Counted from the stretch's first letter, positions 8,063 through 29,340 are shown. The stretch is 32,000 bases of DNA from an uncultured Lachnospiraceae bacterium (GCA_944383545.1 CALWPY010000001.1:11980-43979); one strand, 5' to 3'. The notes: generated by a model not told the origin, from the letters alone. Translations and numbers: made by a program.

Positions 8063-8295
8063 AATATCACCCTTTTTAATAATTAATCTTCATTTCACTT
8101 TCTACATTTTATTATCTGTTTTTACAATATTCAAGCTTTTTCATCAAAATAATTGCTCTTTAGATTAAATTTCACACTTTCTTCGCTCTTTTGTATTTTT
8201 ATTCCATATACCGTCTGTTTTTATTTTTTTAATTTCTACTTTGGGAATTTTCTTTATAACTCAGATAAATCAAAGAAGTTTAAAAAATTAAAGTA

Positions 8296-8346
8296 GGGGC
8301 TGTCGCTTTAACGAATAAAAATTCGTGAAGCGACAGCTTCCTTTTT
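8296..8346 (+). repeat. IS end distal to the transposase start: terminal inverted repeat forming a hairpin plus T-run
   Basis: ggggctgtcgcttt-aacgaataaaaattcgt-gaagcgacagc followed by ttccttttt. The first 11 nt equal the reverse complement of 10172-10182. Confidence 0.6.
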
Positions 8347-8464
8347 GCTATTTTTACGATTGATTTTAAGAAGAAATTCAATCCTTATCTGCTTTTCTAT
8401 AAAAAAAGCGTACTTTAATAAGCCATTTTCCATGGCTTAAAAGTTTATTTTAATAAGTTAAAAA

Positions 8465-10084
8465 TCAAGCACTTTTTAGAGGAAATAAATGAGTTCCGGT
8501 CTTACCTTTTTGAATCTTGTTATGTAGTTTATTTATATTCCTTGCCATCGCCAGCAATGTACTTTCTGCAAGAACATTAGTTGTTCCTTTGCTTAAGTAT
8601 CTTCTAAACTGCATATCCTGTTTTAAATCTCCAAAGGAACCTTCTGCCTGAATGCTTCGGTTTGTTCGAAAAAGAATTCCTTCTTCTGAAAAAATCCGTT
8701 CCAAATCTTTCTGTCTGTATTTCAGAAATGTTTTGGCAACCTGAATCGTTTTTGTTCTTTCATCCAAAGGTGTCTTACAGTTATTGCTTTTGATACATTC
8801 CTTTTTGTAAGGGCATCCATCGCAGTTCTCACATTTATAAATAGTCTTTTCACTCACATACCCGGTTTTGCTTTTGGATTGTCTGACATGAACGACTGTC
8901 AGCCTTTTATCATTTCTGCAGGTATAAATATCCGCTTCTTCATCATATTCCATGTTTTCGATTTTTCCTATGTTGTTTCTGTATTTACGTTTTTTTGAAA
9001 TTTCATAGTTGGCTGGTTTTATATAAGAAATCTGTCCATTGCTTTCAAGAAATAGATAGTTTTCCTCACTTTCATACCCCGCATCCGCAGTGATATTTTT
9101 GTACTTGAATTTAAGATGATTTTCTGCATCTTTTAAAAATGGTATCAGGGTTGTTGTATCAGTGGGCTGCGGCCCGATGGTAAGCCATGTGATATATTCA
9201 GAATCTACACCATGCTGGAGATTGTACGCCGGTTTTAACTGCCCATTTCCCATAGCATCTTCTTTCATTCTCATAAATGTAGCATCATGGTCGGTTTTGG
9301 AATAGCTGTTCCGTTCTCCACAGATATGAATTTGCTGATTGTATTCTTTGAGTCTGGACAAATATCCCTCAAGGGTTTCAATGCTCTTTTGAAGTAGCGT
9401 TTTTCTTTTGCCTATACCATGGACAAAAACTACATTTTCGCTTTCTTTCAGAGTATAAAGTTTTTTACGAAGTTTCTTTACGTGCTTCATTTTTATAATA
9501 CTGTCATAAACAATCTTTATGTCATAAAGTTGTTCGCACTCAGCGACAAAATCAGCAAGTTTTATGAGGAGTTTTTCCTGATTCTTAGTTACTGCTTTCT
9601 TCCAGACAAAAGTATATTTGTTTGCGTTGGCTTCAATTTTTGTACCGTCAATAAAAATGGTCTCTCCCGAAATTTCACCAAGGTCAAAAAGTGTATTGGA
9701 CATTTCTGCAAGAATTCGCTTAGAACATAGAGCAAAATGAATACTTCGAAATCGTGCAAATATCGAATGGTCTGGAGCAGGCGCACCTTCCAAAAGGAAC
9801 ATGAAATTGATGTCCCTCTTGCAGTTTAACTCCATGGAACGTGATAAATAATCCCCATTCATGTAAGAATAGAGAACAATCTTAAGAAGCGTTCTTGGCG
9901 ATACTGAATTTATTCTTTCATAAGTAGAATACAGGTCAGTCAAATCCATAGCCTCCACAAATTGACTTAGTAAACGCACAGAATCATCTTCAGGAATAAT
10001 TGTTTCAAGATTTAGCGGAAGTTTTAGTTGATATCCTTCTGCATTTTGGGTATAATCTTTTTGTAATTTAATAGGTAATAGCAT
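8465..10084 (-). CDS. IS1182-family (IS5-like DDE) transposase
   Basis: 539 aa. The N-terminal DUF772-like region reads DDSVRLLSQFVEAMDLTDLYSTY ... LLKIVLYSYMNGDYLSRSMELNCKRDINFMFL. The DDE core has IFIDGTKIEANANKY and ITADAGYESEENY. A Cys cluster (CENCDGCPYKKEC) and the C-terminal IQAEGSFGDLKQ ... LLAMARNINKL match the family. Confidence 0.85.
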   Translation of the reverse strand: MLLPIKLQKDYTQNAEGYQLKLPLNLETIIPEDDSVRLLSQFVEAMDLTDLYSTYERINSVSPRTLLKIVLYSYMNGDYLSRSMELNCKRDINFMFLLEGAPAPDHSIFARFRSIHFALCSKRILAEMSNTLFDLGEISGETIFIDGTKIEANANKYTFVWKKAVTKNQEKLLIKLADFVAECEQLYDIKIVYDSIIKMKHVKKLRKKLYTLKESENVVFVHGIGKRKTLLQKSIETLEGYLSRLKEYNQQIHICGERNSYSKTDHDATFMRMKEDAMGNGQLKPAYNLQHGVDSEYITWLTIGPQPTDTTTLIPFLKDAENHLKFKYKNITADAGYESEENYLFLESNGQISYIKPANYEISKKRKYRNNIGKIENMEYDEEADIYTCRNDKRLTVVHVRQSKSKTGYVSEKTIYKCENCDGCPYKKECIKSNNCKTPLDERTKTIQVAKTFLKYRQKDLERIFSEEGILFRTNRSIQAEGSFGDLKQDMQFRRYLSKGTTNVLAESTLLAMARNINKLHNKIQKGKTGTHLFPLKSA

Positions 10085-10142
10085 ACTTATATTTTACACC
10101 AACTGCCAGAAACTTTCGAGGTCTGGCAGTTATTTTTTCACA

Positions 10143-10184
10143 AAAAAAGGAGCTGCGCACTAATTCTTAGTGCGACAGCCCCTT
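10143..10184 (-). repeat. IS end proximal to the transposase start (42 bp), copy A; also an intrinsic terminator for the cassette
   Basis: aaaaaaggagctgcgcactaattcttagtgcgacagcccctt. On the minus strand this is a ~13-bp stem with one bulge, followed by 7 T. It lies 19 bp downstream of the stop of the 257-aa ORF. It is identical to 14751-14792. Confidence 0.7.
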
Positions 10185-10202
10185 AATAACTGAGATGTTA
10201 AT

Positions 10203-10976
10203 TTACAGCATTTTCTTTAAAATGTCCGCCAATACATAATAAGCATACTTATAAACTTCAGCGGAATTGTTGTCTGGCGTAACCTCACCATGCATCAAAG
10301 AACAACGCAATAAATATAAAACCTCAATGATGCCTCTGCTAACTTTAGATCTTTCATTAATAAAAATAATGTTATTGTCACGGTCTTTTCTTAGTACACT
10401 TTCAATAACATAAGGACAAACTTCTTTATAAAACGCTTTGCATTGACCTTGCTGTTCTATACCTAAACGAAGAAAATCGGCATGCACATCCAATTCTGTT
10501 TCATCATATCGATCCTGCTCAAATTGAAAATACACATAAGCGGGATTGTTTTTTCGATGAACTAATGTAGTGACCTTTTGTCTTGTCCTCTGAATTTTAT
10601 AGTGCGTTACTCTGTAATCTCCTTCTGCTATGCTTTTAGGATTATTTATCGCAATTTCAGAAAACGAAATTTGCTGACTCATTCCCCCTCTTTCCTGAGT
10701 AACAATGGCAGCACTGACTAGAGCAGATTGTAAATTGTTAAGATTCTTCTTGAAAGAAATTGCCCCATCAGTATTGTTATTTATATCGAGTAATGTTTCT
10801 ATGTACCCTTTGAATCGATTGTTTTCAGATTTTAATCGCTCTATTATTTCTCGATCTGTTCGTTCCTTATACTCACTACGATACCAAGAATTGAATGCTA
10901 TCCAAACTTTGATAAAGGCCGAATAATAATCGACTTTTATATCTATTTGTTGGATCCAATCTCTATAACTTGGCAT
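10203..10976 (-). CDS. Hypothetical 257-aa protein with a C-terminal Rx4H (HEPN-like) motif, translationally coupled to the S subunit
   Basis: Its start shares a TAATG overlap with the S-gene stop at 10976. The only recognisable motif is LYLLRCSLMHGE (R-x4-H followed by G) about 35 aa from the C-terminus. Both the N-terminal (YYSAFIKVWIAFNSWY) and C-terminal parts look helical. No TM segment or signal peptide. Confidence 0.55.
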   Translation of the reverse strand: MPSYRDWIQQIDIKVDYYSAFIKVWIAFNSWYRSEYKERTDREIIERLKSENNRFKGYIETLLDINNNTDGAISFKKNLNNLQSALVSAAIVTQERGGMSQQISFSEIAINNPKSIAEGDYRVTHYKIQRTRQKVTTLVHRKNNPAYVYFQFEQDRYDETELDVHADFLRLGIEQQGQCKAFYKEVCPYVIESVLRKDRDNNIIFINERSKVSRGIIEVLYLLRCSLMHGEVTPDNNSAEVYKYAYYVLADILKKML

Positions 10977-12415
10977 TAGCTCTCAACCCCCTTTTCATTA
11001 AGCCAACTTAACGCAACATCTTCGCCTTGTTCAATCGCTAAGCTAACAGCATCTGTTGCTAATCGTAGCATTGACAATCCTTTTGTCTTTTCTTCATAAG
11101 CTTCAATAATATGTTTTTCTATTTCTTTTTGAAGACTTTCTTCAACGAAGGGTATAACAATTTTATCAATATCTTTTGGATATAGTTCCTGTTGTGCAGA
11201 ACCAGCACTTAGGCGTTCAACTTGCATTCTTCCAATTTGAGAATTCATAACCAAAGCCACATATAGACAATTGTATCCTTGAGTTAATCTAAGAATGTTA
11301 ACATGGTTACTAGCGATTGCCCGTTCTTTTGACAAATATGGAGATGTTCTTCCGATATTTGCTCCTGTTGTATAAGTCAGGATGTCATTCAGATGTATTT
11401 GTGCTTTTGGTTTTGAGTCCCATATAGAACAATGTGTTTTTTCGAAATTATTATAATCCAAAGTGGTATCTAAGATGTGTTTACTATTAACTACATTTAA
11501 TTCCCCATCGCTAGAATAAATCGGTTGCACGCCTCGTGCATTATACGCTTGAATTTCTCCGATCTTTTTCGTGAAAAGCGAATTGTTCTGCAACAAAGAA
11601 AATAGATACTCATATTTAGGATGATAAAATTCAGCATCTATCCTAAGTTCATTATTAAGAACACTTTTATAATATTTAATTGCACAGTTATTATGGGCGA
11701 CATGTTCTGTATCGAATTTCAAGTTTTCATAAAGAATGCTGGTTGCCAACTTATACTTATTATCTGAACTCGATATTGTTTTGTTGCCTTTTTTTATGGT
11801 TTGAGCAATTATTGTTTGAAAAGAAGAACTTAATAGCGGTATAGGAATAGTACGAATACGGCTCATTGCCACGGTGGGTTGTGCAGACAAGGTCTTTTCC
11901 TTATCTAGAATAGCTTGACCACAACTCGAATTCAAAAAAGCAGATACGTAATACGGATTTAGCACGGCGTCTTTAGGTGTAAGTCTGCAAACATTTGGCC
12001 CTAATTGCAAGTTTTCCTGCTCTAACGTTAATGCTCTTCTATATTCTCCTGTATATGACATAATGATGTCACCGATTTTTAGTTTAGAGCGCTTTAAAAA
12101 CTCATCGGCTACGGATTTGTCAATTCTAAGTGTATCATCCAATAACAAATGCTCACTTTGAACATTTTTGCTTGTAATTGCTAAATAGTAATCATCTGTA
12201 GTCGTGTTTTCCTCTGTGAAATATTTGGTATATTCAAATCCCGCCAATTTTGATACATCAAAATGTTCTCCAAGTATGCAATGGTTCTTTGCCTTTATAT
12301 GATTTATAAGGTTCAAAGCGGATTTTTTATAATATTCAGAATCAATTCTAAATACTCCATTGCATTCTTTAGTAAAACTATAATTTATTTCTATACACTC
12401 AAGCCCATCCATCAA
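10976..12415 (-). CDS. Restriction-modification specificity subunit (HsdS-like, two target-recognition domains)
   Basis: 479 aa with the duplicated Methylase_S layout. The two variable halves each open with a similar motif (FRIDSEYY and LRIDAEFY). A central spacer helix and a C-terminal conserved helix (LQKEIEKHIIEAYEEKTKGLSMLRLATDAV) are present. Confidence 0.8.
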   Translation of the reverse strand: MMDGLECIEINYSFTKECNGVFRIDSEYYKKSALNLINHIKAKNHCILGEHFDVSKLAGFEYTKYFTEENTTTDDYYLAITSKNVQSEHLLLDDTLRIDKSVADEFLKRSKLKIGDIIMSYTGEYRRALTLEQENLQLGPNVCRLTPKDAVLNPYYVSAFLNSSCGQAILDKEKTLSAQPTVAMSRIRTIPIPLLSSSFQTIIAQTIKKGNKTISSSDNKYKLATSILYENLKFDTEHVAHNNCAIKYYKSVLNNELRIDAEFYHPKYEYLFSLLQNNSLFTKKIGEIQAYNARGVQPIYSSDGELNVVNSKHILDTTLDYNNFEKTHCSIWDSKPKAQIHLNDILTYTTGANIGRTSPYLSKERAIASNHVNILRLTQGYNCLYVALVMNSQIGRMQVERLSAGSAQQELYPKDIDKIVIPFVEESLQKEIEKHIIEAYEEKTKGLSMLRLATDAVSLAIEQGEDVALSWLNEKGVES

Positions 12416-12456
12416 GGCCTTATATTTAGCTTCATTGAAAGGTTCAACAGATGGGC

Positions 12457-14442
12457 TTATCGAAAAAAACTTAAACCTTCCTTCTTTGCAAATTCAATAA
12501 AAGCTTCTGCAATACCTTCTTGAGTCATACCATCGTGATTATAAAGATCATGATCTACGATAAAGTGACTATGGCTGTCGAGTTTGATTTCCCCATTTTC
12601 ATCCTTTACATAAATTTTCTCTCCAGAATTGTCCTTGCTTGGTTTCTGCATCGTTGCAAAGAAAATCGGATAATCGTCTTTTTTGGGGCACAACTCATCA
12701 TCCCACTTTTGCACAAACAAAACTGAGGTTTTCGTTCCAGTATGAGGTTTGAAAACATTGCCGTGTAAGCCGACAACTGCAAGTATACGACAACGCTCAG
12801 CAATAAAGTCACGAATATACTTGTCGCTCGAATTATTAAAACGCCCTTGAGGAAGGACTACGGCCATTCTGCCGCCCGGCTTTAAGAAATTAAGATTACG
12901 CTCGATAAACAAAATATCTCTGCCGACCTTTTTCTGCCACTTACCTTTTTCGCTTTTAGCAAGCTCATAATGAGAAAGAATGGTCTGCTCTTTAATATCT
13001 CCGGCGAACGGAGGATTCGCCATAACAAGATCAAAATTAAATTTGCTAAAATCATTGCTTCCTTTTGGTTGTAGCTTTTTCAGTTTTTTAAAGCCTTCGT
13101 TATAAGTATCATTCCAATCTTCCTGTTTGGTAATTTCGTTCCAACGAGAATAATCAAGTGTATTAAGGTGCAGTACATTGGTTTGCCCATCACCGGCAAT
13201 CAAATTAAGAGTTCGAGCAACACGAACGGTTTTCTCGTCAAAATCAATTGCAAAGACATTATCCCGAACAAAGTTTCTTTCATCAGGGGTTCTTTCCGAT
13301 GCTGTAAAGTCTTCACCGGGTTCCAGCCCCTTTGATAAACGAATTTCTTTCCATACTTTGAAAATGCTATGTACAGTAAAGCCCGAACTACCGCATGCAG
13401 TATCAATAATTTTATCATTAACTGTTGGATTCATCATTTTTACGCACATATCAATAACATAACGAGGCGTAAAATACTGACCTTTTTCGCCCTTTTGCGC
13501 TTTACTCATCAAATATTCAAACGCATCATCAACAACATCAAGATTGTTATTAAAAAGTTTAATATCCTGTAATGTAGAAACACAAACAGCAAGGTGCGAA
13601 GGGGATAACAGGATTTTGCTTTCCTCAGGGAATACACCTTCCCATTTCTTTTTTGCATCGTCAAATAGACCTTGAATTTTCTCTTTTAATTCAAAGTCTG
13701 TATCACCACTATTGCGGAACTGCAAATATGCTGTTTTGTCGTTAGCACAGATAAGCTCATCATAAAGTTTTGCGAAAATAAGCTTAAAGATTTCCTCGAA
13801 AGAATCCACACCGGCACTTGCAAGGACTTCATCTTCCATTTCCTTTATAAGATTTCTTAGAGAGCGTTTTTCCTTGCTAATCTTATCACGAGTTCTTAAA
13901 TCATCGTAGGTATATCTTTCGTTTAAGATATCTGAAAGTTTTTGTGTAGCCTTTGGAATGTCGCTAATCATCTCAAAGAAATTAGGATCTTTGCGATTAT
14001 AACAAGAAATTTGCTCACCGTTTGTCCAGACGCCAATAGGCGCACCTGTAGCGTTACAATAAGATTTTAATTGTTCTTTTCCGTCAGTGAGCTTAGGTTT
14101 TTTCAGTTCTACAATGATATAAGGAACAGTCGGACGATCCTTATCCATAATCGTTATATCAGCTCGCTTAACTTCACGACCAAAATGAATGGGAGTTTCG
14201 AGTTGAATACGATCTGTCGGATAACCATATTCGTGAATCAGCTTGTAAATATACAATTGGCGTACCGCTTCTTCCGGTGTAAGCTTAATTTCCTTACCTC
14301 TAATAAGACACTTGATATAAGGAACTTCCACACCTTTTATGGGTTTCATAAATACTGCAGTTTCAATAGATGCAATCGTATCCGTTGAAAACAGTGTATC
14401 ATCATAAGAGGTATTCTTGAAAAGCTCATTTAAATTCATCAT
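12457..14442 (-). CDS. Fused N-terminal PD-(D/E)xK (HSDR_N-type) domain plus gamma-class N6-adenine DNA methyltransferase; BcgI-A-like Type IIB/IIG RM subunit
   Basis: 661 aa. The N-terminal 150 aa match the Type I R-protein N-terminus pattern (PEEAVRQLYIYKLIHEYGYP ... RADITIMDKD ... PYIIVELKKP ... GVWTNGEQ), giving a D...E-x-K nuclease signature. The MTase part has GQYFTPRYVIDMCV, motif I IIDTACGSSGF and motif IV VMANPPFAG. Confidence 0.8.
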   Translation of the reverse strand: MMNLNELFKNTSYDDTLFSTDTIASIETAVFMKPIKGVEVPYIKCLIRGKEIKLTPEEAVRQLYIYKLIHEYGYPTDRIQLETPIHFGREVKRADITIMDKDRPTVPYIIVELKKPKLTDGKEQLKSYCNATGAPIGVWTNGEQISCYNRKDPNFFEMISDIPKATQKLSDILNERYTYDDLRTRDKISKEKRSLRNLIKEMEDEVLASAGVDSFEEIFKLIFAKLYDELICANDKTAYLQFRNSGDTDFELKEKIQGLFDDAKKKWEGVFPEESKILLSPSHLAVCVSTLQDIKLFNNNLDVVDDAFEYLMSKAQKGEKGQYFTPRYVIDMCVKMMNPTVNDKIIDTACGSSGFTVHSIFKVWKEIRLSKGLEPGEDFTASERTPDERNFVRDNVFAIDFDEKTVRVARTLNLIAGDGQTNVLHLNTLDYSRWNEITKQEDWNDTYNEGFKKLKKLQPKGSNDFSKFNFDLVMANPPFAGDIKEQTILSHYELAKSEKGKWQKKVGRDILFIERNLNFLKPGGRMAVVLPQGRFNNSSDKYIRDFIAERCRILAVVGLHGNVFKPHTGTKTSVLFVQKWDDELCPKKDDYPIFFATMQKPSKDNSGEKIYVKDENGEIKLDSHSHFIVDHDLYNHDGMTQEGIAEAFIEFAKKEGLSFFR

Positions 14443-14633
14443 ATATCCGCTCCTTCATCAACAAGTCTTTTATATCTTTCATAGGAAATAATTACATTTT
14501 GAGGTTTGTTTTGCTTTTGAACAATTAAAACCTTGTCTTTAGTGGCAACATCTTTAAATATTTTTGATGCTTGACCTTTTAAAAAGGGGGTAACCGACTC
14601 ATAATCGGGTATAATCTTCTTTTTTTGTGACAA
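14439..14633 (-). CDS. Phd/YefM-family antitoxin-like small DNA-binding protein
   Basis: 64 aa. KVLIVQKQNKPQNVIISYERYKRLVDEG matches the Phd/YefM core pattern (vvItrnGkpvaVllsyeeYerL). TTG start with a strong AAGGAGG Shine-Dalgarno 9 nt upstream. Its stop overlaps the start of the RM gene by 4 bp. Confidence 0.65.
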   Translation of the reverse strand: MSQKKKIIPDYESVTPFLKGQASKIFKDVATKDKVLIVQKQNKPQNVIISYERYKRLVDEGADI

Positions 14634-14670
14634 TCAGTTACGCCTCCTTATCATATAATAATGCGAATAC

Positions 14671-14700
14671 AGTATACCTCAAAATCATTACTTATGTCAA
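14671..14700 (-). promoter_or_regulatory. Sigma-70-type promoter of the cassette operon
   Basis: The minus strand reads TTGACA (14700-14695), an 18-nt spacer, then TATACT (14676-14671), about 35 nt upstream of the TTG start. Confidence 0.5.
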
Positions 14701-14720
14701 GTTTATTATTATAATAAATG

Positions 14721-14738
14721 TAATGACTTTAATCATTA
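14721..14738. promoter_or_regulatory. Candidate operator: inverted repeat TAATGA-N6-TCATTA, with a third half-site inside the promoter spacer
   Basis: taatgactttaatcatta at 14721-14738. Another TCATTA at 14685-14690 lies between the -35 and -10 hexamers. Confidence 0.35.
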
Positions 14739-14750
14739 TTTATTGGCAAT

Positions 14751-14792
14751 AAAAAAGGAGCTGCGCACTAATTCTTAGTGCGACAGCCCCTT
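14751..14792 (-). repeat. Solo 42-bp copy B of the IS end; intrinsic terminator of the CarD-like gene
   Basis: Exact 42/42 match to 10143-10184 in direct orientation. It lies 32 bp downstream of the stop at 14824. On the minus strand the hairpin is followed by TTTTTT. Confidence 0.7.
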
Positions 14793-15321: not shown

Positions 15322-15340
15322 TAAAAAAACTCCTTTCTAA

Positions 15341-15602
15341 TGCCGCCGACCTGCTTCACCAATTTGCGAAGCAAATTGATGAACTACTCATGCGCCATCG
15401 CACAAAGTGCGATTTTCCATGCGCATGATACCCTTTCAGGGAGGGGGCCATCCGCAGTGCCATTGCAAAGCAATTTCATTGCACTGCGTCCACTGCCGCC
15501 GACCTGCTTCACCAATTTGCGAAGCAAATTGATGAACTACTCATGCGCCATCGTACGAAGTGCGATTTTCCATGCGCATGATACCCTTTCAGGGAGGGGG
15601 CC
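15341..15602. repeat. Tandem direct repeat of a 109-bp GC-rich, hairpin-rich unit (period 153 bp) in the leader of the CarD-like gene
   Basis: Copy 1 (15341-15449) and copy 2 (15494-15602) are identical at 107/109 positions. A 44-nt palindromic spacer separates them. Each unit has three stem-loops: ttcaccaatttgc-gaa-gcaaattgatgaa; catgcgc...tcgcac-aaa-gtgcga...gcgcatg; and ccct-ttc-aggg. Confidence 0.85.
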
Positions 15603-18142: not shown

Positions 18143-18256
18143 ATTAATTTCTCCAAATTTTTTATGCCTGTATTTAATCTAAAATCATACTTATTGTTTT
18201 GTCAAGTATATATAAAAAAAGCTTCAATCCATTACTTTGGTTTGAAGCTTTTAGAG

Positions 18257-18327
18257 AGGCGCCAACCAGATTTGAACTGGTGATAGAGGTGTTGCAGACC
18301 TTTGCCTTACCACTTGGCCATGGCGCC
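18257..18327 (-). tRNA. tRNA-Cys (GCA)
   Basis: The reverse complement is GGCGCCATGGCCAAGTGGTAAGGCAAAGGTCTGCAACACCTCTATCACCAGTTCAAATCTGGTTGGCGCCT. 7-bp acceptor stem, anticodon loop CTGCAAC, T-loop GTTCAAATC. No CCA is encoded. Confidence 0.9.
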
Positions 18328-18371
18328 ATATTTACATATATGACCGTTAAACGGTTTTTATTTTATGTAAG

Positions 18372-18443
18372 CTCCCCGAGTAGGGCTCGAACCTACAACC
18401 CCACGGTTAACAGCCGTGTGCTCTACCATTGAGCTATCGAGGA
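18372..18443 (-). tRNA. tRNA-Asn (GTT)
   Basis: The reverse complement is TCCTCGATAGCTCAATGGTAGAGCACACGGCTGTTAACCGTGGGGTTGTAGGTTCGAGCCCTACTCGGGGAG. Anticodon stem cacgg/ccgtg, loop CTGTTAA, T-loop GGTTCGAGC. Confidence 0.9.
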
Positions 18444-18547
18444 ATATAACAACATGATAGATTATATGCAAAAAATATATATAAGTCAATACTTTTCGTA
18501 AGTCATTTTCCCTTAAGTAATCCATAATATCGACCTAAATTTTTTAA

Positions 18548-18635
18548 CGGAGATGGAGGGATTTGAACCCTCGCGCCGCGCGAACGACCTACACCCTTAG
18601 CAGGGGCGCCTCTTCAGCCACTTGAGTACATCTCC
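18548..18635 (-). tRNA. tRNA-Ser (GCT), class II with long variable arm
   Basis: The reverse complement is GGAGATGTACTCAAGTGGCTGAAGAGGCGCCCCTGCTAAGGGTGTAGGTCGTTCGCGCGGCGCGAGGGTTCAAATCCCTCCATCTCCG. Anticodon loop CTGCTAA, with a long GC-rich variable arm. Confidence 0.9.
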
Positions 18636-18720
18636 AGTGCCTAAACTTTATTATTTTTTAGTTTTAAGCTTATTTTGCGATTAACGCGCTTTTACATGAT
18701 AACAAATAAGGATATCATTG

Positions 18721-20351: not shown

Positions 20352-20406
20352 ATATTATCCTCCCCAATGCGTAGTTCGTAAGGTCATCCTTATGACGAAA
20401 AATGGA

Positions 20407-22914
20407 TTAGTTACTGCCTTTTTCTTTATTTTCTTCCTCCAGACGTTTTAAGGCATCTTCAGTTTCACTTTCTCTTACCTTTGCAATGCTTGCAACCGTG
20501 ATGTCATTTGCAACATCCACATTAATAAGCTTAACTCCGGATGTTACCCTTCCGAGTTCTGAAATGTCACTGCAGTTAAGGCGTATTACTATTCCCTGAG
20601 TGGATATGAGCATTATTTCATGATTGTCATTAACTGCCTTAACTCCGACAACATTTCCGGTCTTTTCGTTAATCTTATAACATTTAACACCCTTACCGCC
20701 TCTGTTCTGAGGTGTGAATTCATCTATTGCCGTCCTCTTACCCATTCCGTTTTCGGAAACAATGAGAAGTGTTCTTCCCTGGGTATTCATCTGCATTCCA
20801 ATTACCTCATCATCAGGTGAAAGCTTCATTCCTATTACACCCATTGAAGTTCTTCCGGTGCTTCTTACATCGGTTTCACTAAATCTTATGCACATACCGA
20901 GCTTTGTAACCATAATAATATCCCTGGTATCGTCGGTAGTTTTAACCTCTATGAGTTCGTCTCCCTCTCTAAGTGTAATGGCAGCCAGACCGTTCTTCCT
21001 GATATTCTGGTATTCAGTTACAGGAGTTTTCTTAACTAAACCATGTTTAGTAACCATAAAGAGGAACTTTCCTTCTTTATATTCCTTGATAGGAATTATT
21101 GCAGTTATTTTTTCTTCAGGGTCTAATTGAAGAAGGTTAACTATTGCAGTACCTCTTGCAGTTCTTCCCGATTCAGGAATTTCATAGGTCTTAAGTCTGT
21201 AAACCTTTCCCTTGTTGGTAAAGAACATTATATAATGGTGGGTTGTAGTCATAAGGAGTTCTTCAATAAAATCGTCCTCTATGGTCTGCATGCCCTTTAT
21301 TCCTTTACCGCCTCTGTTCTGGGCTTTGAAGTTATTTACGGTCATTCTCTTGATATAACCGAGCTTTGTCATGGTTATAACCGTATTTTCCTTCTTTATA
21401 AGGTCTTCTATTGTTAAATCGTCATCATCAAAACCTATCTGTGTTCTTCTGTCATCGCCGTACTTCATGGAAACTATCATAATTTCCTCTTTTATTACCC
21501 CAAGCAGCTTCTTTTCGTCTGCCAGAATTGCACGGAGTTCAGCGATTTTTTCCATGAGCTCACGATATTCGTTCTCAAGCTTTTCTCTTTCCAAGCCTGT
21601 TAACGCACGGAGTCTCATATCTACAATAGCCTGAGACTGTGCATCCGTAAGACCGAATCTTTCCATGAGAGAAAGCTTTGCTTCCTGAACACTCTTTGAG
21701 CCTCTTATTATCTTAATAACTTCATCAATGTTATCAAGTGCTATAAGCAGACCTTCCAAAATGTGGGCTCTTTCTTCGGCCTTATTTAAATCGTATTTTG
21801 TACGTCTGGTTACAACATCCTCCTGATGCTTTATGTAATATTCAAGCATTTCAAGAAGATTTAAAACTTTAGGCTCGTTGTTTACAAGAGCAAGCATGTT
21901 TACGCCAAAAGTATCCTGCATCTGGGTATGCTTATATAAATTATTTAGAAGCACATTAGCATTGCAGTCTTTTTTAAGCTCTATTACTATTCTCATTCCT
22001 TCTCTTGAAGACTCATCACGAAGGTCGGTAATTCCTTCAACCTTTTTATCCTTAACGAGTTCTGCAATTTTCTGTATGAGATTAGCCTTATTAACCATAT
22101 ATGGAAGCTCTGTTACAATTATTCTCTGCTTTCCATTTGGCATAGGCTCAATTTCGGTAATGGCTCTTACCTTTATTTTTCCCTTACCTGTTCTATATGC
22201 TTCTTCAAAACCTGCCTTACCTAAAACTAAAGCACCTGTAGGAAAATCAGGACCCTTTACAATATCAAGAACTTCTTCAATGCTTGTTTCCCTGTCTTCC
22301 AATACACGGTTATCTATTATTTTTACTACCGCATCTATTATTTCTCTTAAATTATGAGGCGGTATGTTTGTTGCCATACCTACGGCAATACCTGATGTAC
22401 CGTTTACAAGAAGATTTGGAAAACGGCTTGGTAAAACAACAGGCTCTTTTTCTGTTTCATCGAAGTTAGGTATAAAATCAACCGTATCTTTATTTATATC
22501 TGCAAGCATTTCCATGGATATTTTTGAAAGTCTTGCTTCGGTATATCTCATGGCAGCCGCACTGTCACCATCCATTGAGCCGAAATTTCCGTGTCCGTCT
22601 ACAAGAGGATATCTGGTGTTCCAGTCCTGTGCTAACTTTACAAGTGCTTCGTAAATAGAACTGTCCCCGTGTGGGTGATATTTACCCATTGTATCACCTA
22701 CGATACGGGCACACTTTCTATGAGGTTTATCAGGCCCGTTATTAAGCTCTATCATTGAAAAAAGTATTCTTCTCTGTACAGGCTTAAGACCGTCCCTTAC
22801 ATCAGGGAGGGCTCTGGCAGCAATAACGCTCATTGCATAGTCAATATATGACCTTTCCATGGTCTTTTTTAAATCCACCTCATGGATACTGTCAAATATC
22901 TTATCGTCGTCCAT
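20407..22914 (-). CDS. gyrA: DNA gyrase subunit A
   Basis: 835 aa. [26 protein letters not shown], the QRDR context [14 protein letters not shown], the active-site region AAMRYTE, and C-terminal beta-pinwheel repeats. Confidence 0.97.
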
Positions 22915-22928
22915 TTTTTATCCTCCCA

Positions 22929-24845
22929 TTAAATGTCAAGATTCTTAACGAATTTTGCATTTTCTTCAATAAACTTTCTACGCGGCTCTACCTTATCTCC
23001 CATAAGAGTATTGAATGTTAAGTCTATTTCAGACTCATCTTCATTATCTATTGCAACCTTAAGAAGAATACGGTTTTCAGGGTCCATTGTAGTATCCCAG
23101 AGCTGGCTGGCATCCATTTCTCCAAGTCCCTTATAACGCTGAATCTTATTACTTGAATCTCTTCCTACTTCCTCTAAAATTGAAGCAAGCTCGTCATCAC
23201 TGTATGCATACCATACCTTTTTATTTTTTTCCAGCTTGTAAAGCGGTGGCTGAGCCAGATATACATGTCCTTCTCTTATCAAATCCGGCATAAATCTGTA
23301 AAAGAATGTAAGAAGAAGTGTAGCTATATGTGCTCCGTCCACATCGGCATCAGTCATGATAATAATTTTATCATAACGAAGCTTATCTATATTAAAATTA
23401 TCATGTATACCCGTACCAAAAGCAGTAATCATTGCCTTTATTTCTTCATTTCCGAGTATTCTGTCAATTCTTGCCTTTTCAACATTAAGAATTTTTCCTC
23501 TTAAAGGAAGTATCGCCTGAGTTGCCCTGTTTCTTGCGGATTTTGCAGAGCCTCCCGCAGAATCTCCCTCAACTATATATATCTCACAATTCTTAGGGTC
23601 TTTATCTGAGCAGTCAGCCAGCTTTCCCGGAAGAGCCATTGTATCTGCAAGAGTAGTCTTACGTGCCACGTCTCTTGCTTTTCTTGCTGCAATTCTTGCT
23701 CTCTGTGCAAGCAGGGCTTTATTTATTATTGTTTTTGCAATTTGAGGATTCTGCTCCAGAAAATAAGTAAGCTGCTCGCTCATTATGCTTTCTACGGCAC
23801 TTCTTGCTTCTGCATTTCCCAGCTTCTGCTTTGTCTGGCCTTCAAACTGAGGCTCACTTATTTTTATACTTATAATTGCAGTAAGTCCTTCTCTTAAGTC
23901 ATCACCTGAAAGGTTATCTTCTTTTTCTTTTAATAACTTAAACTCTCTGGCATAATCATTAAATACCTTTGTTATGGCAGACCTGAATCCCGTGAGGTGC
24001 ATACCACCCTCAGGAGTTATAATATTATTTACAAAGCTGTATACGGATTCATTAAAAGAGTCATTATGCTGCATGGCAACCTCAACATAGATGTCATCCT
24101 TAACACCTTCACAATAAATAACCTTATTGTAAAGAGGGTCCTTGTGTCTGTTTATATATTCAACAAATTCTTTAATACCTCCCTCATAGTGGAAAGTTCT
24201 CTCAAGAACAGGGTCTTCTCTTAAATCAGTAAGAGTAATCTTTAAATTTTTAGTAAGAAATGCTGTTTCCCTTAATCTTGTTTTTAATGTATTAAAATCA
24301 TATATAACATCATCAAAAATTGTATCATCAGGTAAAAATGTAACCTTAGTACCTGTTTTTTCTGATTTTCCAACTACCTTAAGGTCATACATTACCTTAC
24401 CATATTCATATCTCTGCTTATATACCTTTCCGTCTATTGAAATTTCAACTTCAAGCCACTTAGAAAGAGCATTAACAACAGATGCACCAACTCCGTGAAG
24501 TCCGCCTGATACCTTATATCCCCCACCACCGAACTTTCCGCCGGCATGAAGTATGGTAAATACAACTTCTACTGCAGGTCTCTGTGCTTTTTCCTGAATA
24601 TCTACAGGTATACCTCTTCCGTTATCAATTACCGTTATGGAATTATCCTCATTTATGAATACCTGAATCTCAGAGCAGTAACCTGCAAGTGCTTCATCAA
24701 CTGAATTATCAACTATTTCATATACAAGATGATGTAGACCTCTGGTTGATGTACTTCCTATATACATTCCCGGTCTTTTTCTTACAGCCTCTAGTCCTTC
24801 GAGTATCTGAATCTGATCGGCACCATAATTTTTACTTTCTTCCAT
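22929..24845 (-). CDS. gyrB: DNA gyrase subunit B
   Basis: 638 aa. [39 protein letters not shown], Toprim [15 protein letters not shown], and [12 protein letters not shown]. Confidence 0.97.
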
Positions 24846-24854
24846 TTTATCCTC

Positions 24855-25940
24855 CTAATTTTTAACCTCTACATGTCCGTTTTTCACTTTGTATATATTA
24901 TCTATTGTAAGTCTTTCTTTTATAAAATCATCATAGCCCGTACAGGTTATAATTGTCTGTATGTCTTTTATACCTTCAATAAGTGCATTTCTTCTTGATT
25001 TATCAAGCTCAGACATTACATCATCCAGTAAAAGAATCGGATTGTCATTTATAATCTGTTTAACAAGCTCAATTTCAGCAAGTTTAAGCGATAATGTCGC
25101 AGTCCTCTGCTGTCCCTGGGAGCCAAACATCTTGACATCCATATCATTTATAATAAAAGCCATATCATCTCTGTGAGGTCCGTACTGTGTACTCTGATAT
25201 TTTAAATCTGTTTCTCTCTTTTTTTCAAGAATACTTAAAAACTCATCTTCCTCTACACTTTTATTATATTTAAGAACAAGTTTTTCTTTTCCCAAAGTAA
25301 GTCTGTCATGTATACCGGAAATAATTTCATTTATCATGTTAATGAAATTATTCCTCTCTTTTATGATTTTTATACCATAATTTGCCAGTTGATTATCCCA
25401 GATATCGAGAGTATCAATAAGACTTCTGTTAAAAGCTATCTGCTTTAAAAGATTATTTCTCTGATTAAGAATTTTATTGTAATTTGCCAGATTTCCGTAA
25501 TATATCCTGCTTAGCTGGCATAATTCCATATCTATAAAACGTCTTCTTTCCACAGGACTGCTTTTTATAATGTTTAAATCCTCGGGTGAAAAAATTATTA
25601 TATTTATAACTCCGAATATTTCAGCAGAACGTCTTATGGAAATTCCATCTATGGCAACACCTTTACTTTTATTTTTACGGATATGCATATCAATCCTGTG
25701 GCTTACATCACGTTTTTTTAAATCAACTCTTATATGGGATTCTTCTTCTCCGAATCTTATTATATCTTTATCCCTGCTTCCCCTATGGGATTTAGTGGTT
25801 GCCGACATATAGATTGATTCTAAAATATTGGTTTTTCCCTGAGCATTGTCACCATATAATATATTAGTTCCCTTACTGAAACTTATATTAAGATTTTCAT
25901 AATTTCTAAAATTGCTAAGAGCTAAATTATTTATATACAT
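24855..25940 (-). CDS. recF: DNA replication and repair protein RecF
   Basis: 361 aa. Walker A YGDNAQGKTNILE, the SMC-like signature FGSQGQQRT, and Walker B ILLLDDVMSELD. Confidence 0.93.
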   Translation of the reverse strand: MYINNLALSNFRNYENLNISFSKGTNILYGDNAQGKTNILESIYMSATTKSHRGSRDKDIIRFGEEESHIRVDLKKRDVSHRIDMHIRKNKSKGVAIDGISIRRSAEIFGVINIIIFSPEDLNIIKSSPVERRRFIDMELCQLSRIYYGNLANYNKILNQRNNLLKQIAFNRSLIDTLDIWDNQLANYGIKIIKERNNFINMINEIISGIHDRLTLGKEKLVLKYNKSVEEDEFLSILEKKRETDLKYQSTQYGPHRDDMAFIINDMDVKMFGSQGQQRTATLSLKLAEIELVKQIINDNPILLLDDVMSELDKSRRNALIEGIKDIQTIITCTGYDDFIKERLTIDNIYKVKNGHVEVKN

Positions 25941-25941
25941 A

Positions 25942-26151
25942 TCATTTCCTGATGCTTATTTTTTTGCCGTCAAAAATAATTTCATCTCCGTCATATAATT
26001 TACGTCCTCTTCTGGTTTCAATTTCTCCGTTTACCAAAACAAGACCTTCTGTTATTACATCTTTTGCCATGGCGCCTGTTTCTATAAGCCCTGCAGCTTT
26101 AAGTGCCTGCCCCAGCTTTATGTATTCATCTCTTAATTTTATTATTTCCAT
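25942..26151 (-). CDS. yaaA: S4-domain RNA-binding protein (YaaA-like)
   Basis: 69 aa. LGQALKAAGLIETGAMAKDVI ... VLVNGEIETRRGRKLYDGDEI. It occupies the conserved position between dnaN and recF. Confidence 0.85.
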   Translation of the reverse strand: MEIIKLRDEYIKLGQALKAAGLIETGAMAKDVITEGLVLVNGEIETRRGRKLYDGDEIIFDGKKISIRK

Positions 26152-26176
26152 AGTTTTATCCTGACTTAAATATTTT

Positions 26177-27292
26177 TTAATAAGCAGCAGTATTAATGTT
26201 CATAGGAAGTATTACATAAATATAGCTTTCTTCTTCATTCTTAATAATGCAAGGATTTCTGAAATCATTCATGTAAATATTCACTTCTTCATCATCTATT
26301 ACACGAAGTGCATCCATTATAAATTTAGGATTAAATCCAATTACAATTTCTCCGCTGTCTTTTCTTATACTTATTTCTTCATTCATGGAGCCCATATTGG
26401 AATCTACGTGAAGATACATATTGTTGTCATTTTTAATACTAATAATGATAGGTTTTTTATCAGACTCCTTTATAAGAAGAGATGCTCTGTCAATACAATC
26501 CAAAAGTTCTTTTTTATTAACATTAACCCTCATCTTATAATCGATTGAAAGCATCTGTGAAATTTTAAAATATTCACCCTCCAGAAGTCTGGAAACAACT
26601 CTTGTCTCATCAAACTCAAAAAGTATATGTCTGTCAGTAAAATAAATATTTACCTCATCCTCTGCTCCTCCGTTTATAATCTTACTTAAATCCATAAGAG
26701 TTTTTCCCGGAACTACAACTTTTACATTTTCATTTTCTCCCTTAAGAGGAATTTTGCGCAGAGAAATACGATGACCGTCAAGAGATACAACAATTAAAGT
26801 ATTATCCTTTACTTCAAAAGACTCTCCGGTCATAAGCTTTGTATTTTCATTATATGATATTGAAAAAATGGTTTGTCTTACTACTTCTCTCAAATCAAAC
26901 TGGGAAAGAGTTATGCTTTTTTCTTTCTCTATATCAGGAAGATAAGAAAAATCCTCACCTGATTTACTTGCTATTACGAATTTTGATTTTTCACACCTTA
27001 TTGTAGTCTTATAATCTTCACTTGTTTCTATATCTATTTCACTTTCAGGAAGCTTTCTTACTATGTCAGAAAAAATCTTTGCCTCTATGGCTATTTTTCC
27101 TTCTTCCAGAATAGTACCGTCTATAAAAGTTTCAATTCCAATCTCTAAATCATTTGCAGTAAGTTTTATTCTGTCATTTACTGCTTCGATAAGTATACAT
27201 TCAAGTATTGGCATTGTAGTTTTAGTTGAAACAGCTTTTGAAACAATATTTATACCTGCTGCCAGATTATTTTTACTGCATTTTATTCTCAT
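26177..27292 (-). CDS. dnaN: DNA polymerase III beta sliding clamp
   Basis: 371 aa with the three-domain clamp pattern (ILECILIEA ... LTANDLEIGI ... SLDGHRIS ... FNPKFIMDAL). It lies downstream of dnaA. Confidence 0.93.
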   Translation of the reverse strand: MRIKCSKNNLAAGINIVSKAVSTKTTMPILECILIEAVNDRIKLTANDLEIGIETFIDGTILEEGKIAIEAKIFSDIVRKLPESEIDIETSEDYKTTIRCEKSKFVIASKSGEDFSYLPDIEKEKSITLSQFDLREVVRQTIFSISYNENTKLMTGESFEVKDNTLIVVSLDGHRISLRKIPLKGENENVKVVVPGKTLMDLSKIINGGAEDEVNIYFTDRHILFEFDETRVVSRLLEGEYFKISQMLSIDYKMRVNVNKKELLDCIDRASLLIKESDKKPIIISIKNDNNMYLHVDSNMGSMNEEISIRKDSGEIVIGFNPKFIMDALRVIDDEEVNIYMNDFRNPCIIKNEEESYIYVILPMNINTAAY

Positions 27293-27312
27293 CTTGGTTA
27301 ATAACTCCTTTC

Positions 27313-27378
27313 AGGTTTGGTAAAATATTAAATATAATAATATAATTTAGTAGTAATAGTAGTAGTAAGTGTGGATTT
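27313..27378 (-). promoter_or_regulatory. oriC unwinding module: AT-rich DUE, seven DnaA-trios and an abutting DnaA-box-like site
   Basis: Plus strand: an AT-only stretch at 27313-27347, then TAG TAG TAA TAG TAG TAG TAA at 27348-27368, one G, then tgtggattt at 27370-27378. The reverse complement of the last site is AAATCCACA, 7/9 to TTATCCACA. Reading from dnaA towards dnaN, the order box, trios, DUE matches the Bacillus subtilis incC layout. Confidence 0.6.
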
Positions 27379-27562
27379 GTTGATATCGCTGAAATCCCTT
27401 GTCTTTGTTAAAAAAAATGATGTTATTTACGATGTTGGTTTCAGGTAAAAAGTGTTTGATAAAATGTTAATATAAAAAATGAATTTAAAAATTATTAAGT
27501 ATATAATTTTTTATTAATATGTTATGAACATCAATTAAAGTTTAATTAACATGTTATTAACA

Positions 27563-28954
27563 CTATTTATCCTGAGGATTTATCTTTTTTATGATAATCT
27601 GTATCATTGCGTTAAATTCCTCATCCTCTTCCATTTTTTTCTTAACATTTTTTATTCCGCTCATAACTGTGGCATGATTTTTTCCACCTACAATGTCTCC
27701 TATTGAATGAAGAGTTTTAGCCGTATAGTTACGGCAGAGATACATAACTATCTGTCTTGCTATTGCTATGTCCTGACTTCTCTTTTTGGAGCATATGTCT
27801 TCTGTGGATATATTTAAGTGTTCAGCAACAGTATTTAATATGAGCTCACCGGTTATGGAAGTGTTTGAATCCTTCGAGATAAGGTCCTTTAAAGTATCTT
27901 TTGCCAGGTCAACCGTAATATCAACATTTATAAGCTTTGAATATACACTTATCTTGTTTAAGGCTCCCTCAAGCTCACGCACGTTTGATACAATGTTTTC
28001 TGCAATATATTTAAATACATCATCAGAAATGTTTGTAAGGTTATCCATTTCGGCCTTATTTTTAAGGATGGCCATACGTGTTTCATAATCAGGGGCATGA
28101 ATATCAATAGGAACTCCCCATTCAAAACGTGAACGGATTCTTTCTTCAAGTGATTTTATTTCCTTTGGAGGTTTATCCGAGGAAAGAATTATCTGTTTTT
28201 TAGCTTCATATAAGAAATTAAAGGTATTGAAAAATTCCTGCTGTGTTCTTTCACGGCCTATGATTTCCTGAATATCATCAATTAAAAGTACATCTACCTG
28301 TCTGTATTTAGCTCTGAATTCTTCAGTTTTATTCTTTTGTATGGCATCAATAATTTCATTAGTAAAAGTTTCTGAAGAAACATACAGGACGTTTGCTTCA
28401 TCGTCATGCTGAAGTATGTAATGTGCTATTGACTGCATAAGGTGAGTTTTTCCAAGTCCTGAGCCTCCGTAAATAAAAAGAGGGTTAAAATTATCCTGTG
28501 AAGGAAGGTCAGCTACTGCAAGACATGTAGCATAGGCATGTCTGTTACTGTCACCTACAATAAAATTATCGAATGTATATTTAGGATTTAAATTACTTCT
28601 TCTTATTGCATCACGATAAGCCTTGCTGTAAGAAGCATCCTCGTTTTCCTGAGAATCTTCTTTATTAAAAGTCTTGGCAAGGTTTGATTTTTCATCTATA
28701 ACTATTTCAATATCAGCATTGTTTAGAATTTCTCTAATGGAAGAAAGAAGAAATATATCATAACCCTTCTTGTGGAGATAATCTACTCCGAATTTACCTC
28801 TCTGTTCATCAACAAAAAAGTATATGGTATTATTTCTTACTTCATAAACTTTAATAGAACGTATCCATGTATCTATAATAATTTTTGATACGTCATATTG
28901 AGTTTCCAGAAGGTAGAGAATATCTTCCCATTTGCTTTCAATCAGTTTCTTCAT
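27563..28954 (-). CDS. dnaA: Chromosomal replication initiator protein DnaA
   Basis: 463 aa. NPKYTFDNFIVGDSNRHAYA, Walker A GGSGLGKTHLMQ, Walker B LLIDDIQ, sensor SSDKPP, and the domain IV motif IARQIVMYLCR ... IGDIVGGKNHATVMSG. Confidence 0.97.
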   Translation of the reverse strand: MKKLIESKWEDILYLLETQYDVSKIIIDTWIRSIKVYEVRNNTIYFFVDEQRGKFGVDYLHKKGYDIFLLSSIREILNNADIEIVIDEKSNLAKTFNKEDSQENEDASYSKAYRDAIRRSNLNPKYTFDNFIVGDSNRHAYATCLAVADLPSQDNFNPLFIYGGSGLGKTHLMQSIAHYILQHDDEANVLYVSSETFTNEIIDAIQKNKTEEFRAKYRQVDVLLIDDIQEIIGRERTQQEFFNTFNFLYEAKKQIILSSDKPPKEIKSLEERIRSRFEWGVPIDIHAPDYETRMAILKNKAEMDNLTNISDDVFKYIAENIVSNVRELEGALNKISVYSKLINVDITVDLAKDTLKDLISKDSNTSITGELILNTVAEHLNISTEDICSKKRSQDIAIARQIVMYLCRNYTAKTLHSIGDIVGGKNHATVMSGIKNVKKKMEEDEEFNAMIQIIIKKINPQDK

Positions 28955-29040
28955 TTTATATAAAGCCTTTCAAAACAGTAAAAATTTAAGTGTGCATAAT
29001 TACTTATATAATACATCAAAAATTAAAAAGAAACAAGATT

Positions 29041-29340
29041 AATTGTGGATTATTGGATATGTTTTATTTGTATAAAGAGATATAAAATAAAGGGTGATAA
29101 TGTATATTTAAATTCAAGCTAAAATCTGTCGAAGGTCTGATAAAAATAACATATCTTTATAAACAATTACTTCCTGCGGAACTCGTGCTTTGCACTCAAA
29201 CAGTCCTCGGAAGTAATTATAAAGATATATTATTTTTAAGACCCTCTGACAGATTACGCAAATGAATTATAAATATACATTTTCACCTTTATTTTTGTAT
29301 TCTTTAAAATCAAATAAAACATAACCTATAATCTACAATT
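29041..29340. repeat. Long imperfect palindrome E1 (~300 bp, arms ~130 bp) with a GC-rich apex
   Basis: The left arm 29041-29173 aligns with the reverse complement of 29210-29340 over its full length, with small indels. Examples are aattgtggattattggatatgttttatttg vs aattgtagattataggttatgttttatttg, and aatctgtcgaaggtct vs aatctgtcagagggtct. Apex at 29174-29209. Confidence 0.85.

Follow-up and report, generated by a model that had tools for sequence, protein, structure and literature searches.

A mobile restriction-modification cassette with a conserved third gene in an uncultured Lachnospiraceae bacterium

How does a restriction-modification (RM) operon with no HsdR gene operate, and what is the role of the unnamed protein encoded at its end? 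These questions are raised by a four-gene cassette at positions 10,203 to 14,738 of a 32,000-nucleotide (nt) stretch of DNA from an uncultured Lachnospiraceae bacterium (GCA_944383545.1 CALWPY010000001.1:11980-43979), the whole of which is referred to here as the window. The cassette encodes a small protein resembling Phd/YefM antitoxins, a fusion of a nuclease domain with a DNA methyltransferase (the RM fusion), an HsdS-like specificity subunit (S), and a protein of 257 amino acids (aa) that we call X. An original prediction, made from the sequence alone, placed the four genes on one strand behind a single promoter, TTGACA-18-TATACT, with a 4-bp overlap between the first two genes, a 41-bp gap before the third, and a TAATG overlap between the third and the fourth. 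Reading the sequence bears out this arrangement and confirms the coordinates of the four open reading frames (ORFs), which are co-directional and tightly coupled:

14633..14439, minus strand: Phd-like protein, 64 aa, TTG start
14442..12457, minus strand: RM fusion, 661 aa, matching HSDR_N_2 (E=4e-30), N6_Mtase (E=3e-34) and Eco57I (E=1e-13)
12415..10976, minus strand: S, HsdS-like specificity subunit with two target-recognition regions, 479 aa from the TTG or 478 aa from the ATG at 12412
10976..10203, minus strand: X, 257 aa, probably a divergent HEPN domain with a beta-rich insert interrupting it

The overlap between the Phd-like and RM genes is ATGA, the RM stop codon is followed after 41-44 nt by the S start, and a G-rich ribosome-binding-like stretch lies upstream of the TAATG shared by S and X. 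Given their thousands of homologues, the ORFs cannot be put down to chance, and Rfam gave no match in the cassette. With moderate confidence in the explanation taken as a whole, which builds on the observed gene content, motifs, linkage and mobility, we read the region as a self-contained, horizontally mobile RM operon of the "HsdR_N-HsdM fusion plus HsdS" type with two accessory genes.

Much of this cassette belongs to known kinds: the RM fusion with S, the regulator in the controller slot, and the R-M-linked HEPN gene. The original prediction that the module is not a described system was therefore too strong, as HsdR_N-HsdM plus HsdS systems are known, one of them restricts DNA in Zymomonas mobilis (PMC8432527), and a link between HEPN genes and R-M operons was already set out in 2013 (PMC3710099). 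The new elements are the X family, its long paralogue, and their fixed pairing with translocase-less RM enzymes, none of which is described in the libraries and literature searched. Annotation usually treats HsdR_N-HsdM plus HsdS systems as incomplete Type I systems or as plain methylases, and a large subset of them has a fixed third gene without a name in any database.

The nuclease-methyltransferase fusion and its specificity subunit

The RM fusion contains two domains with recognizable catalytic motifs:

13954..14277, minus strand: nuclease domain (HSDR_N_2 PD-(D/E)xK), residues 56-163, with E82, D95, E112 and K114
12577..13542, minus strand: methyltransferase domain, residues 301-622, with motif I DTACGSSG at 347 and motif IV NPPF at 476

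When the window protein is aligned with 32 homologues (~30-100% identity) taken from the fetched loci, the four nuclease residues E82, D95, E112 and K114 are invariant in 33/33 sequences, as are D347, G351 and G354 of motif I and N476-F479 (NPPF) of motif IV. The methyltransferase thus carries its own intact N-terminal PD-(D/E)xK domain, as first proposed. Its four residues follow the same E...D...ExK pattern as the catalytic set of BsaXI (E73, D90, E105 and K107), which is conserved across Type IIB enzymes (PMC11997821). RM.BsaXI (8w0p, Type IIB) is also the best PDB sequence match to the protein (E=2e-24, residues 215-583 only), with EcoKI-type M subunits scoring far below it, and the N-terminal 215 aa have no PDB sequence match. 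The AlphaFold2 (AF2) model of the fusion had a predicted local distance difference test score (pLDDT) of 37 and was not used for a fold search; the alignment behind it was shallow because the homologues returned were all 92-100% identical. A word index gave at least 8000 relatives of the RM fusion. The best 120 share 92-100% identity with the window protein, and the one organism that the sources name among these 120 is Blautia hydrogenotrophica, a gut bacterium.

S matches Methylase_S in two stretches and PADLOC Specificity_I with E=1e-39. Behind the same Phd-like gene and 90-98% identical RM-region DNA the S genes vary (460-483 aa), as expected for shuffling of target-recognition domains (TRDs), and S appears to be freely exchanged between cassettes. 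Among the ten largest neighbour ORFs of 41 genome loci that contain X, no HsdR/ResIII-type helicase was found; these neighbours are KAP NTPase, NACHT, Lhr, transporters and similar proteins, and no large neighbour recurs in the 41 loci. HsdR is likewise not listed among the genes of further loci inspected, in a search that covered the loci around the system. The cassette travels between genomes and species as a four-gene unit with no hsdR. These scans agree with the original description of a Type IIB-like layout, in which an RM protein and a separate S have no linked HsdR.

An alternative is that the RM fusion and S are a plain Type I M and S pair, either an orphan or one served by an hsdR elsewhere, with the HSDR_N domain a non-catalytic relic and X a hitch-hiker. 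The full-length match of the 661-aa protein to the PADLOC model MTase_I PDLC03034 (1088 bits), the best PADLOC model, speaks for this alternative and weighs against our reading, since PADLOC places its closest relatives among the Type I methyltransferases. The sources similarly label these relatives "DNA methylase-type I restriction-modification system", and the search for hsdR was confined to the neighbourhood of the system rather than the rest of the host genome. However, the nuclease tetrad is invariant over deep divergence, the match to the hsdM model TIGR00497 reaches 46.9 bits against a cutoff of 242.75, the four-gene unit crosses species without hsdR, and the homologue type found in Z. 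mobilis restricts without HsdR (PMC8432527). The counter-case that accompanied the original prediction, a plain HsdM with a dead N-terminal domain, does not describe a protein with an invariant tetrad, BsaXI as its best match and no linked HsdR. We consider a plain Type I pair highly unlikely, the least probable of the readings weighed here. Classical Type I (HsdRMS) is a separate candidate and is excluded by the absence of HsdR from every locus examined and by the TIGR00497 score under its cutoff.

The systems closest to the RM fusion and S in layout are the Type IIB enzymes BcgI and BsaXI, in which an N-terminal PD-(D/E)xK domain is fused to an N6-adenine methyltransferase and a separate HsdS-like subunit carries two TRDs. 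They also have no translocase, and BsaXI shares the E...D...ExK pattern and is the best solved sequence match. In contrast, the BsaXI match covers the methyltransferase region only, two-sided cutting by the window enzyme is a prediction, and known Type IIB systems have neither a third, HEPN-like gene nor a dedicated upstream regulator. A second relative is HsdMSc of Z. mobilis (ZMO1934/ZMO1933), an HsdR_N-HsdM fusion with HsdS that restricts incoming plasmids independently of the cell's only HsdR (PMC8432527). Its domain layout, the feature on which the two were compared, is the same as that of the window enzyme.

We conclude that the RM-S system works like a Type IIB/HsdR_N-HsdM enzyme. Formal membership of Type IIB is not established, because the BsaXI match stops short of the nuclease domain, PADLOC gives a Type I label, and the cleavage geometry is only predicted. 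By analogy with BsaXI/BcgI and Z. mobilis HsdMSc, the 661-aa protein would methylate adenine within the site read by S and cut unmodified DNA with its own N-terminal PD-(D/E)xK domain. S would provide bipartite specificity, and an (RM)2S complex like those of the characterised relatives would methylate the bipartite site and cut unmodified DNA without ATP.

MADS was also compared with the cassette. Of the named NCBIfam models, MAD2 comes nearest to the RM protein and MAD5 to S, and on a Chondrinema litorale plasmid a homologue has its S followed by a kinase gene, a feature that PADLOC flags for MADS. However, the MAD2 match reaches 318 bits where 720 are needed and the MAD5 match 99 where 400 are needed, X matches no MADS model, and MAD6-8, which are mandatory in the model of the MADS authors, are absent, as are all other mad genes. 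The scores far under the cutoffs and the missing MAD6-8 exclude membership.

Linkage of X to RM-S pairs

The 41 loci scanned for X comprise one genome per species. An RM gene was found beside X by tblastn in 37/37 informative loci; the other 4 of the 41 end at a contig edge no more than 1.2 kb from X. Clustering the ORFs of the 41 loci placed S in 39, X in 39 and RM in 36. The co-occurrence of the 257-aa gene with a nuclease-methyltransferase gene and S, chosen in advance as a check on the original prediction, therefore holds in every informative locus. Linkage in 37 of 37 loci is not hitch-hiking, which is a further point against the plain Type I pair.

The loci span Bacillota, Bacteroidota, Verrucomicrobiota, Desulfobacterota, Poribacteria and Aquificota, with hosts that include Clostridia, Akkermansia, Desulfovibrionaceae, Lentisphaeria, Bacteroidales, Flagellimonas, Poribacteria and Aquificota. 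The gene order is mostly M-S-X, with M-X-S in Poribacteria and X-M in an Aquificota contig. Two distant members of the X family (P0240 and P0265, ~24% identity) are again part of such triads. The gene after X is variable, and in five loci (L005, L009, L018, L033 and L036) it encodes Fic, DUF4268, NucS_C/DUF5655, Mrr_cat and GIY-YIG/DUF4357 proteins; these are kinds often seen near defence genes and are consistent with a defence-island context.

The slot occupied by X can also hold a longer protein. In one locus (L043, 9615-10994) a 459-aa protein takes the place of X, with the same Phd-like gene and RM-region DNA of 91% identity ahead of it. This protein is one of a second large family (432 proteins) that lacks annotation and has a C-terminal extension, and it shares with X the N-terminal helix region (hhalign probability 96%, E=2.5e-9). 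The 459-aa protein carries YALRNALFH, and the motif that its family has in common with the X family reads LRNALFH.

An RM-S-X triad that is 99.9% identical between its copies is found on a Klebsiella IncF plasmid (L060, NZ_LR890357.1) and in three E. coli chromosomes (among them L066, NZ_CP076272.1), where it is followed by two DUF262 genes. This near-identical Klebsiella/E. coli copy offers a directly testable model; its proteins are WP_086812921 (RM), WP_086812922 (S) and, for X, WP_257191616 in E. coli and WP_114502763 in Klebsiella. On the Klebsiella plasmid NZ_LR890357.1 a ptaRNA1 toxin gene lies upstream of the triad. The other 462 matching plasmid records, nearly all from Klebsiella, contain short partial matches to X only, and in the one of these that was inspected (L061) a remnant of X adjoins an IS1 transposase gene.

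X is not a constant companion of these enzymes in the other direction. Among 21 plasmid records with RM homologues, X is present in the Klebsiella record only, and RM homologues at 30-65% identity occur without X on pAQ6 of Picosynechococcus sp. PCC 7002 and in Trichormus, Chondrinema and Skermanella; a search of the last three loci with the X profile found none. The pAQ6 protein (L062) is the closest plasmid RM homologue, at 64.5% identity, and has no X gene beside it; its size of 1179 aa suggests a single-chain RM-S fusion. Downstream of it lie a RelE/ParE toxin gene and a strawberry-notch-like gene. On the Chondrinema litorale plasmid (L064) a DUF6577 gene precedes the HSDR_N-methyltransferase and S genes, and the gene for a 1383-aa protein kinase comes after them; this order resembles MADS and includes no X. 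Because RM homologues exist without it, we regard X as an accessory module specific to this enzyme type and not as a core, universal subunit. One finding weighs against a strict tie between the two: the distant X member P0253 is solitary between metabolic genes, and X is thus not strictly dependent on RM.

The same linkage can be explained differently, with X an integral subunit that is not an RNase, for example a factor that assembles or bridges RM protomers so that they can cleave in trans, or a sensor of DNA or its modification. This is the main rival to our reading, although we judge it rather improbable. It fits the translational coupling, with the S stop and X start overlapping or no more than ~16 nt apart in nearly all loci, and it fits the near-absence of X away from RM-S and the retention of the slot even where the 459-aa paralogue substitutes for X. 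In addition, HEPN domains usually form dimers, and higher-order assemblies are required by Type IIB enzymes such as BcgI (PMC11997821). It fits less well the X-less RM homologues at 30-65% identity, the single-chain RMS fusion among them, and characterised Type IIB enzymes need RM and S only (PMC11997821). A strictly invariant R-x4-H, described below, is also more typical of catalysis than of scaffolding.

The fold and possible role of X

Searches of Pfam, NCBIfam, PADLOC and PHROGs gave no family for X, and the sources annotate its relatives as "hypothetical protein", so the original statement that the 257-aa protein belongs to no recognizable family stands. A word-indexed search gave 188 proteins, and an exhaustive profile search gave 520 clusters at 50% identity, nearly all of 250-290 aa. 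In an alignment of 90 X sequences (24-79% identity) only N29, L86, R224 and H229 are invariant. The last two are the R and H of the RCSLMH motif picked out in the original prediction, and the motif of the family in this alignment is Y-x-L-R-[C/N]-x-L-F-H-G. Among 123 X sequences the R is conserved in 98% and the H in 99%. The motif lies in the gene as follows:

10290..10307, minus strand: R224-C-S-L-M-H229 (Rx4H) motif, X residues 224-229

The AF2 model of X (pLDDT 88) consists of N-terminal helices, a beta-rich insert (placed at ~90-208 or, more narrowly, ~108-205), a helix (209-228), a loop, and a second helix (236-256). In this model R-x4-H straddles the point where helix 209-228 ends and the loop leading to helix 236-256 begins. 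HEPN domains have Rx4-6H at the end of the penultimate helix (PMC3710099), and R224 and H229 of X are placed in the model as they are in HEPN domains.

Sequence comparison points the same way at low scores. The sole Pfam family matched by more than two of the 90 aligned members is DUF4209 (6/90, best E=0.014, sub-threshold), a HEPN family of the C6orf70 type that is found in R-M related operons (PMC3710099). Single C-terminal segments of X match DUF4209 at profile positions 60-88 of 89 (E 0.014-0.05) and HEPN_Swt1 at positions 47-112 of 115 (E 0.013), in register with the motif and below the gathering score in both cases. With concatenated C-terminal segments DUF4209 is the top Pfam family in 8/10 sets, but the E-values are inflated because homologues are summed, and we therefore rely on the single-segment values alone.

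Several results weigh against assigning X to HEPN. All of its Pfam HEPN matches are sub-threshold, leaving no significant link in sequence or structure to a known HEPN family. Foldseek comparison of the X model with PDB and BFVD returned nothing with E<=0.001, and the X profile against PDB sequences returned noise only. The residue after R is C in the window protein in place of the usual N, D or H, with N common in the X family. The 115-residue insert probably defeats comparison of the whole chain by structure. Weighing these points together, we find it reasonably probable that X is a divergent HEPN domain, and an accessory HEPN-type effector is the role that, by analogy, appears most likely.

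X would accordingly be built from a helical core with an invariant R-x4-H, interrupted by the beta-rich insert and coupled translationally to S, and it is probably bound to the (RM)2S complex. Its most likely role is that of a latent RNase arm, which would be held by RM-S in the manner of PrrC and released when the RM complex is blocked or overwhelmed, leading to translation shut-down. This step is suggested by PrrC/EcoprrI and by the general proposal made for R-M-linked HEPN proteins (PMC3710099). PrrC/EcoprrI (Type Ic, HEPN anticodon nuclease) and the R-M-linked HEPN clades (PMC3710099) resemble the cassette in that an Rx4-6H gene is fixed inside an R-M operon and a latent RNase is proposed to be guarded by the R-M complex. 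They also differ from it. PrrC and RloC have an N-terminal ABC-ATPase and a C-terminal HEPN domain, while X has 257 aa and no ATPase domain; the insert of X is a different, beta-rich one and X is in no existing HEPN Pfam model; and the partner of X is a translocase-less RM fusion and not HsdMSR.

A more specific version of this idea is that X represents a new HEPN-type family, dedicated as a third component to translocase-less (Type IIB-like) RM enzymes. The (RM)2S complex would keep X inactive until overload, or inhibition of the complex by phage anti-restriction proteins, unleashed an abortive RNase. The result would be a PrrC-like guard circuit that evolved independently and has no ATPase sensor. 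We offer this version tentatively, as a possibility with clearly less than an even chance of being right. If X is an RNase arm, two-layer DNA/RNA defences would be very common, and the guard circuit, if correct, would be found widely across the human gut microbiome as well as in Klebsiella and E. coli.

Controller slot, mobility and surroundings of the cassette

The 64-aa product of the first gene matches Pfam PhdYeFM_antitox with E=4.5e-5 and 23.6 bits, below the gathering score of 29.8, over profile positions 9-50 of 74, and matches TIGR01552 with 22.5 bits, just above the cutoff of 20.8. With only 64 aa and this part of the profile, it lacks the toxin-binding tail and seems from its sequence to be the N-terminal dimerisation and DNA-binding part. 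An identical Phd-like protein is present on many contigs, and in 10/10 distinct contexts a gene for an HSDR_N_2-methyltransferase is immediately downstream. No Doc/YoeB/RelE-type toxin gene is adjacent, the downstream gene being the RM fusion in all ten contexts. Elsewhere among RM-S-X loci this position is taken by HTH_3, HTH_26 (Cro/C1), winged-helix (wHTH) or ParG-like proteins. Because other small DNA-binding proteins fill the slot in related systems, the best reading of its position and conservation is that the Phd-like protein is a functional analogue of a controller (C) protein and not an antitoxin. The original prediction was right to find a Phd-like protein where a controller would be expected. 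The antitoxin-like control that it also proposed is not supported, as the protein is the N-terminal DNA-binding part only, is always tied to the RM gene, and is replaced in sister systems by helix-turn-helix (HTH), wHTH or ribbon-helix-helix (RHH) regulators.

The promoter region contains elements on which such a regulator might act:

14671..14700, minus strand: sigma-70-type promoter TTGACA-18-TATACT, 11/12 consensus positions
14721..14738, minus strand: inverted repeat TAATGATTAAAGTCATTA, candidate operator box 1, upstream of the -35 hexamer
14682..14693, minus strand: AAGTAATGATTT (AAGTAATGA), related to TAATGATTAAAGTCATTA, candidate autorepression box 2, inside the promoter spacer

The promoter ranks among the region's two best matches. 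Its hexamers and spacing are conserved in L001, L002, L005, L006 and L042-L049, and it is kept in cassettes at 60-90% protein identity, which bears out the original assignment of one promoter to the four genes. An AAAGT(A/C)ATTA box is retained at the position of box 1 in diverged cassettes, and an AAGTAAT(G/T)A box directly follows TTGACA in most of the cassettes compared. Boxes 1 and 2 are therefore candidate operator or autorepression sites, through which the Phd/YefM-fold protein may act on the operon promoter as a DNA-binding autoregulator in the role of a C protein. It weighs against this part of our reading that conservation of sequence is the whole of the case for the boxes. Like the C genes of R-M systems, the Phd-like gene is a small DNA-binding gene just upstream of, and overlapping, the restriction gene, repeated boxes surround the promoter, and HTH_3 proteins take the same slot in sister systems. 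It differs in that its fold appears to be Phd/YefM and not HTH, and regulation is here a prediction. Unrelated small DNA-binding folds, including a truncated Phd/YefM, would appear to be interchangeable in the controller slot of R-M operons.

The original prediction combined these elements into a composite module, in which X is a toxin or abortive effector checked by the Phd/YefM-like antitoxin and RM is a separate arm. A Phd/YefM match above the NCBIfam cutoff and the single promoter common to all four genes are compatible with this model. We nevertheless consider it very unlikely, given a 64-aa protein that covers profile positions 9-50 of 74 and has no toxin-binding tail, a Phd-like gene that abuts RM and not X in 10/10 contexts, the HTH, wHTH or RHH protein, or nothing, in the slot of most X triads, and the lack of a Doc, YoeB or RelE partner.

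The controller analogue travels with the other three genes. Elsewhere, in other metagenomes, the same cassette (by DNA homology to window 14758..10182) is cargo of an integrative mobilizable element with the order HTH_3, tyrosine integrase, NikA-like, AAA_25, Mob_Pre relaxase, TnpV and then the four cassette genes. In several contigs this element is beside guaA. The view of the cassette as mobile cargo is upheld by these copies of the same four genes. Because the system rides mobilizable elements, it has consequences for phage therapy and for gene transfer in the gut.

In the window, and in a contig (L045) that is 100% identical to it over 7.5 kb, the cassette has a carD-like gene on one side and an insertion sequence (IS) of the IS1182 family on the other:

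~8295..10183, minus strand: IS1182-family IS (DDE_Tnp_1_6, DDE_Tnp_1, DUF772) with GGGGCTGTCGC terminal inverted repeats/hairpins at both ends (inverted repeats I9/I10)
10084..8465, minus strand: 539-aa DDE transposase inside the IS
10143..10184, minus strand: 42-nt hairpin, left end of the IS and likely operon terminator
14751..14792, minus strand: solo 42-nt copy of the IS left end (hairpin and T-run), identical to 10143-10184, likely terminator of the carD-like gene

The right end of the IS was set by alignment with an unrelated contig (L054). The 42-nt sequence forms an exact direct repeat that brackets the cassette, and 0/100 shuffles gave two matches. The same hairpin heads another copy of the IS in L054, and the repeat is therefore the left end of the IS; the IS-end copies noted around the cassette in the original prediction are real. 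The alternative that the repeat is the native carD terminator, duplicated on insertion, is ruled out by the hairpin at the head of the IS in L054. The solo copy is a truncated left end and coincides exactly with the upstream border of the cassette. The cassette site lies between the carD-like gene and an amidase gene.

Upstream of the carD-like gene the window contains two direct copies (15336-15449 and 15489-15602) of a GC-rich 114-nt element, 96% identical and 153 nt apart. One copy on the minus strand folds to -45.9 kcal/mol (z = -3.56). The element has no Rfam match, is present among the fetched loci only in L045, and may represent either a structured leader or some small repeat. Further along, a cluster of tRNA-Cys(gca), tRNA-Asn(gtt) and tRNA-Ser(gct) genes occupies 18256-18636 on the minus strand. 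An ORF of the gyrA type (22914..20407) is marked by Pfam through L045, the sizes and order of minus-strand ORFs up to 28954 would fit gyrB, recF, dnaN and dnaA, and the GC skew changes sign near 29 kb. The region ~20400-29500 of the window is probably the neighbourhood of the chromosomal replication origin.

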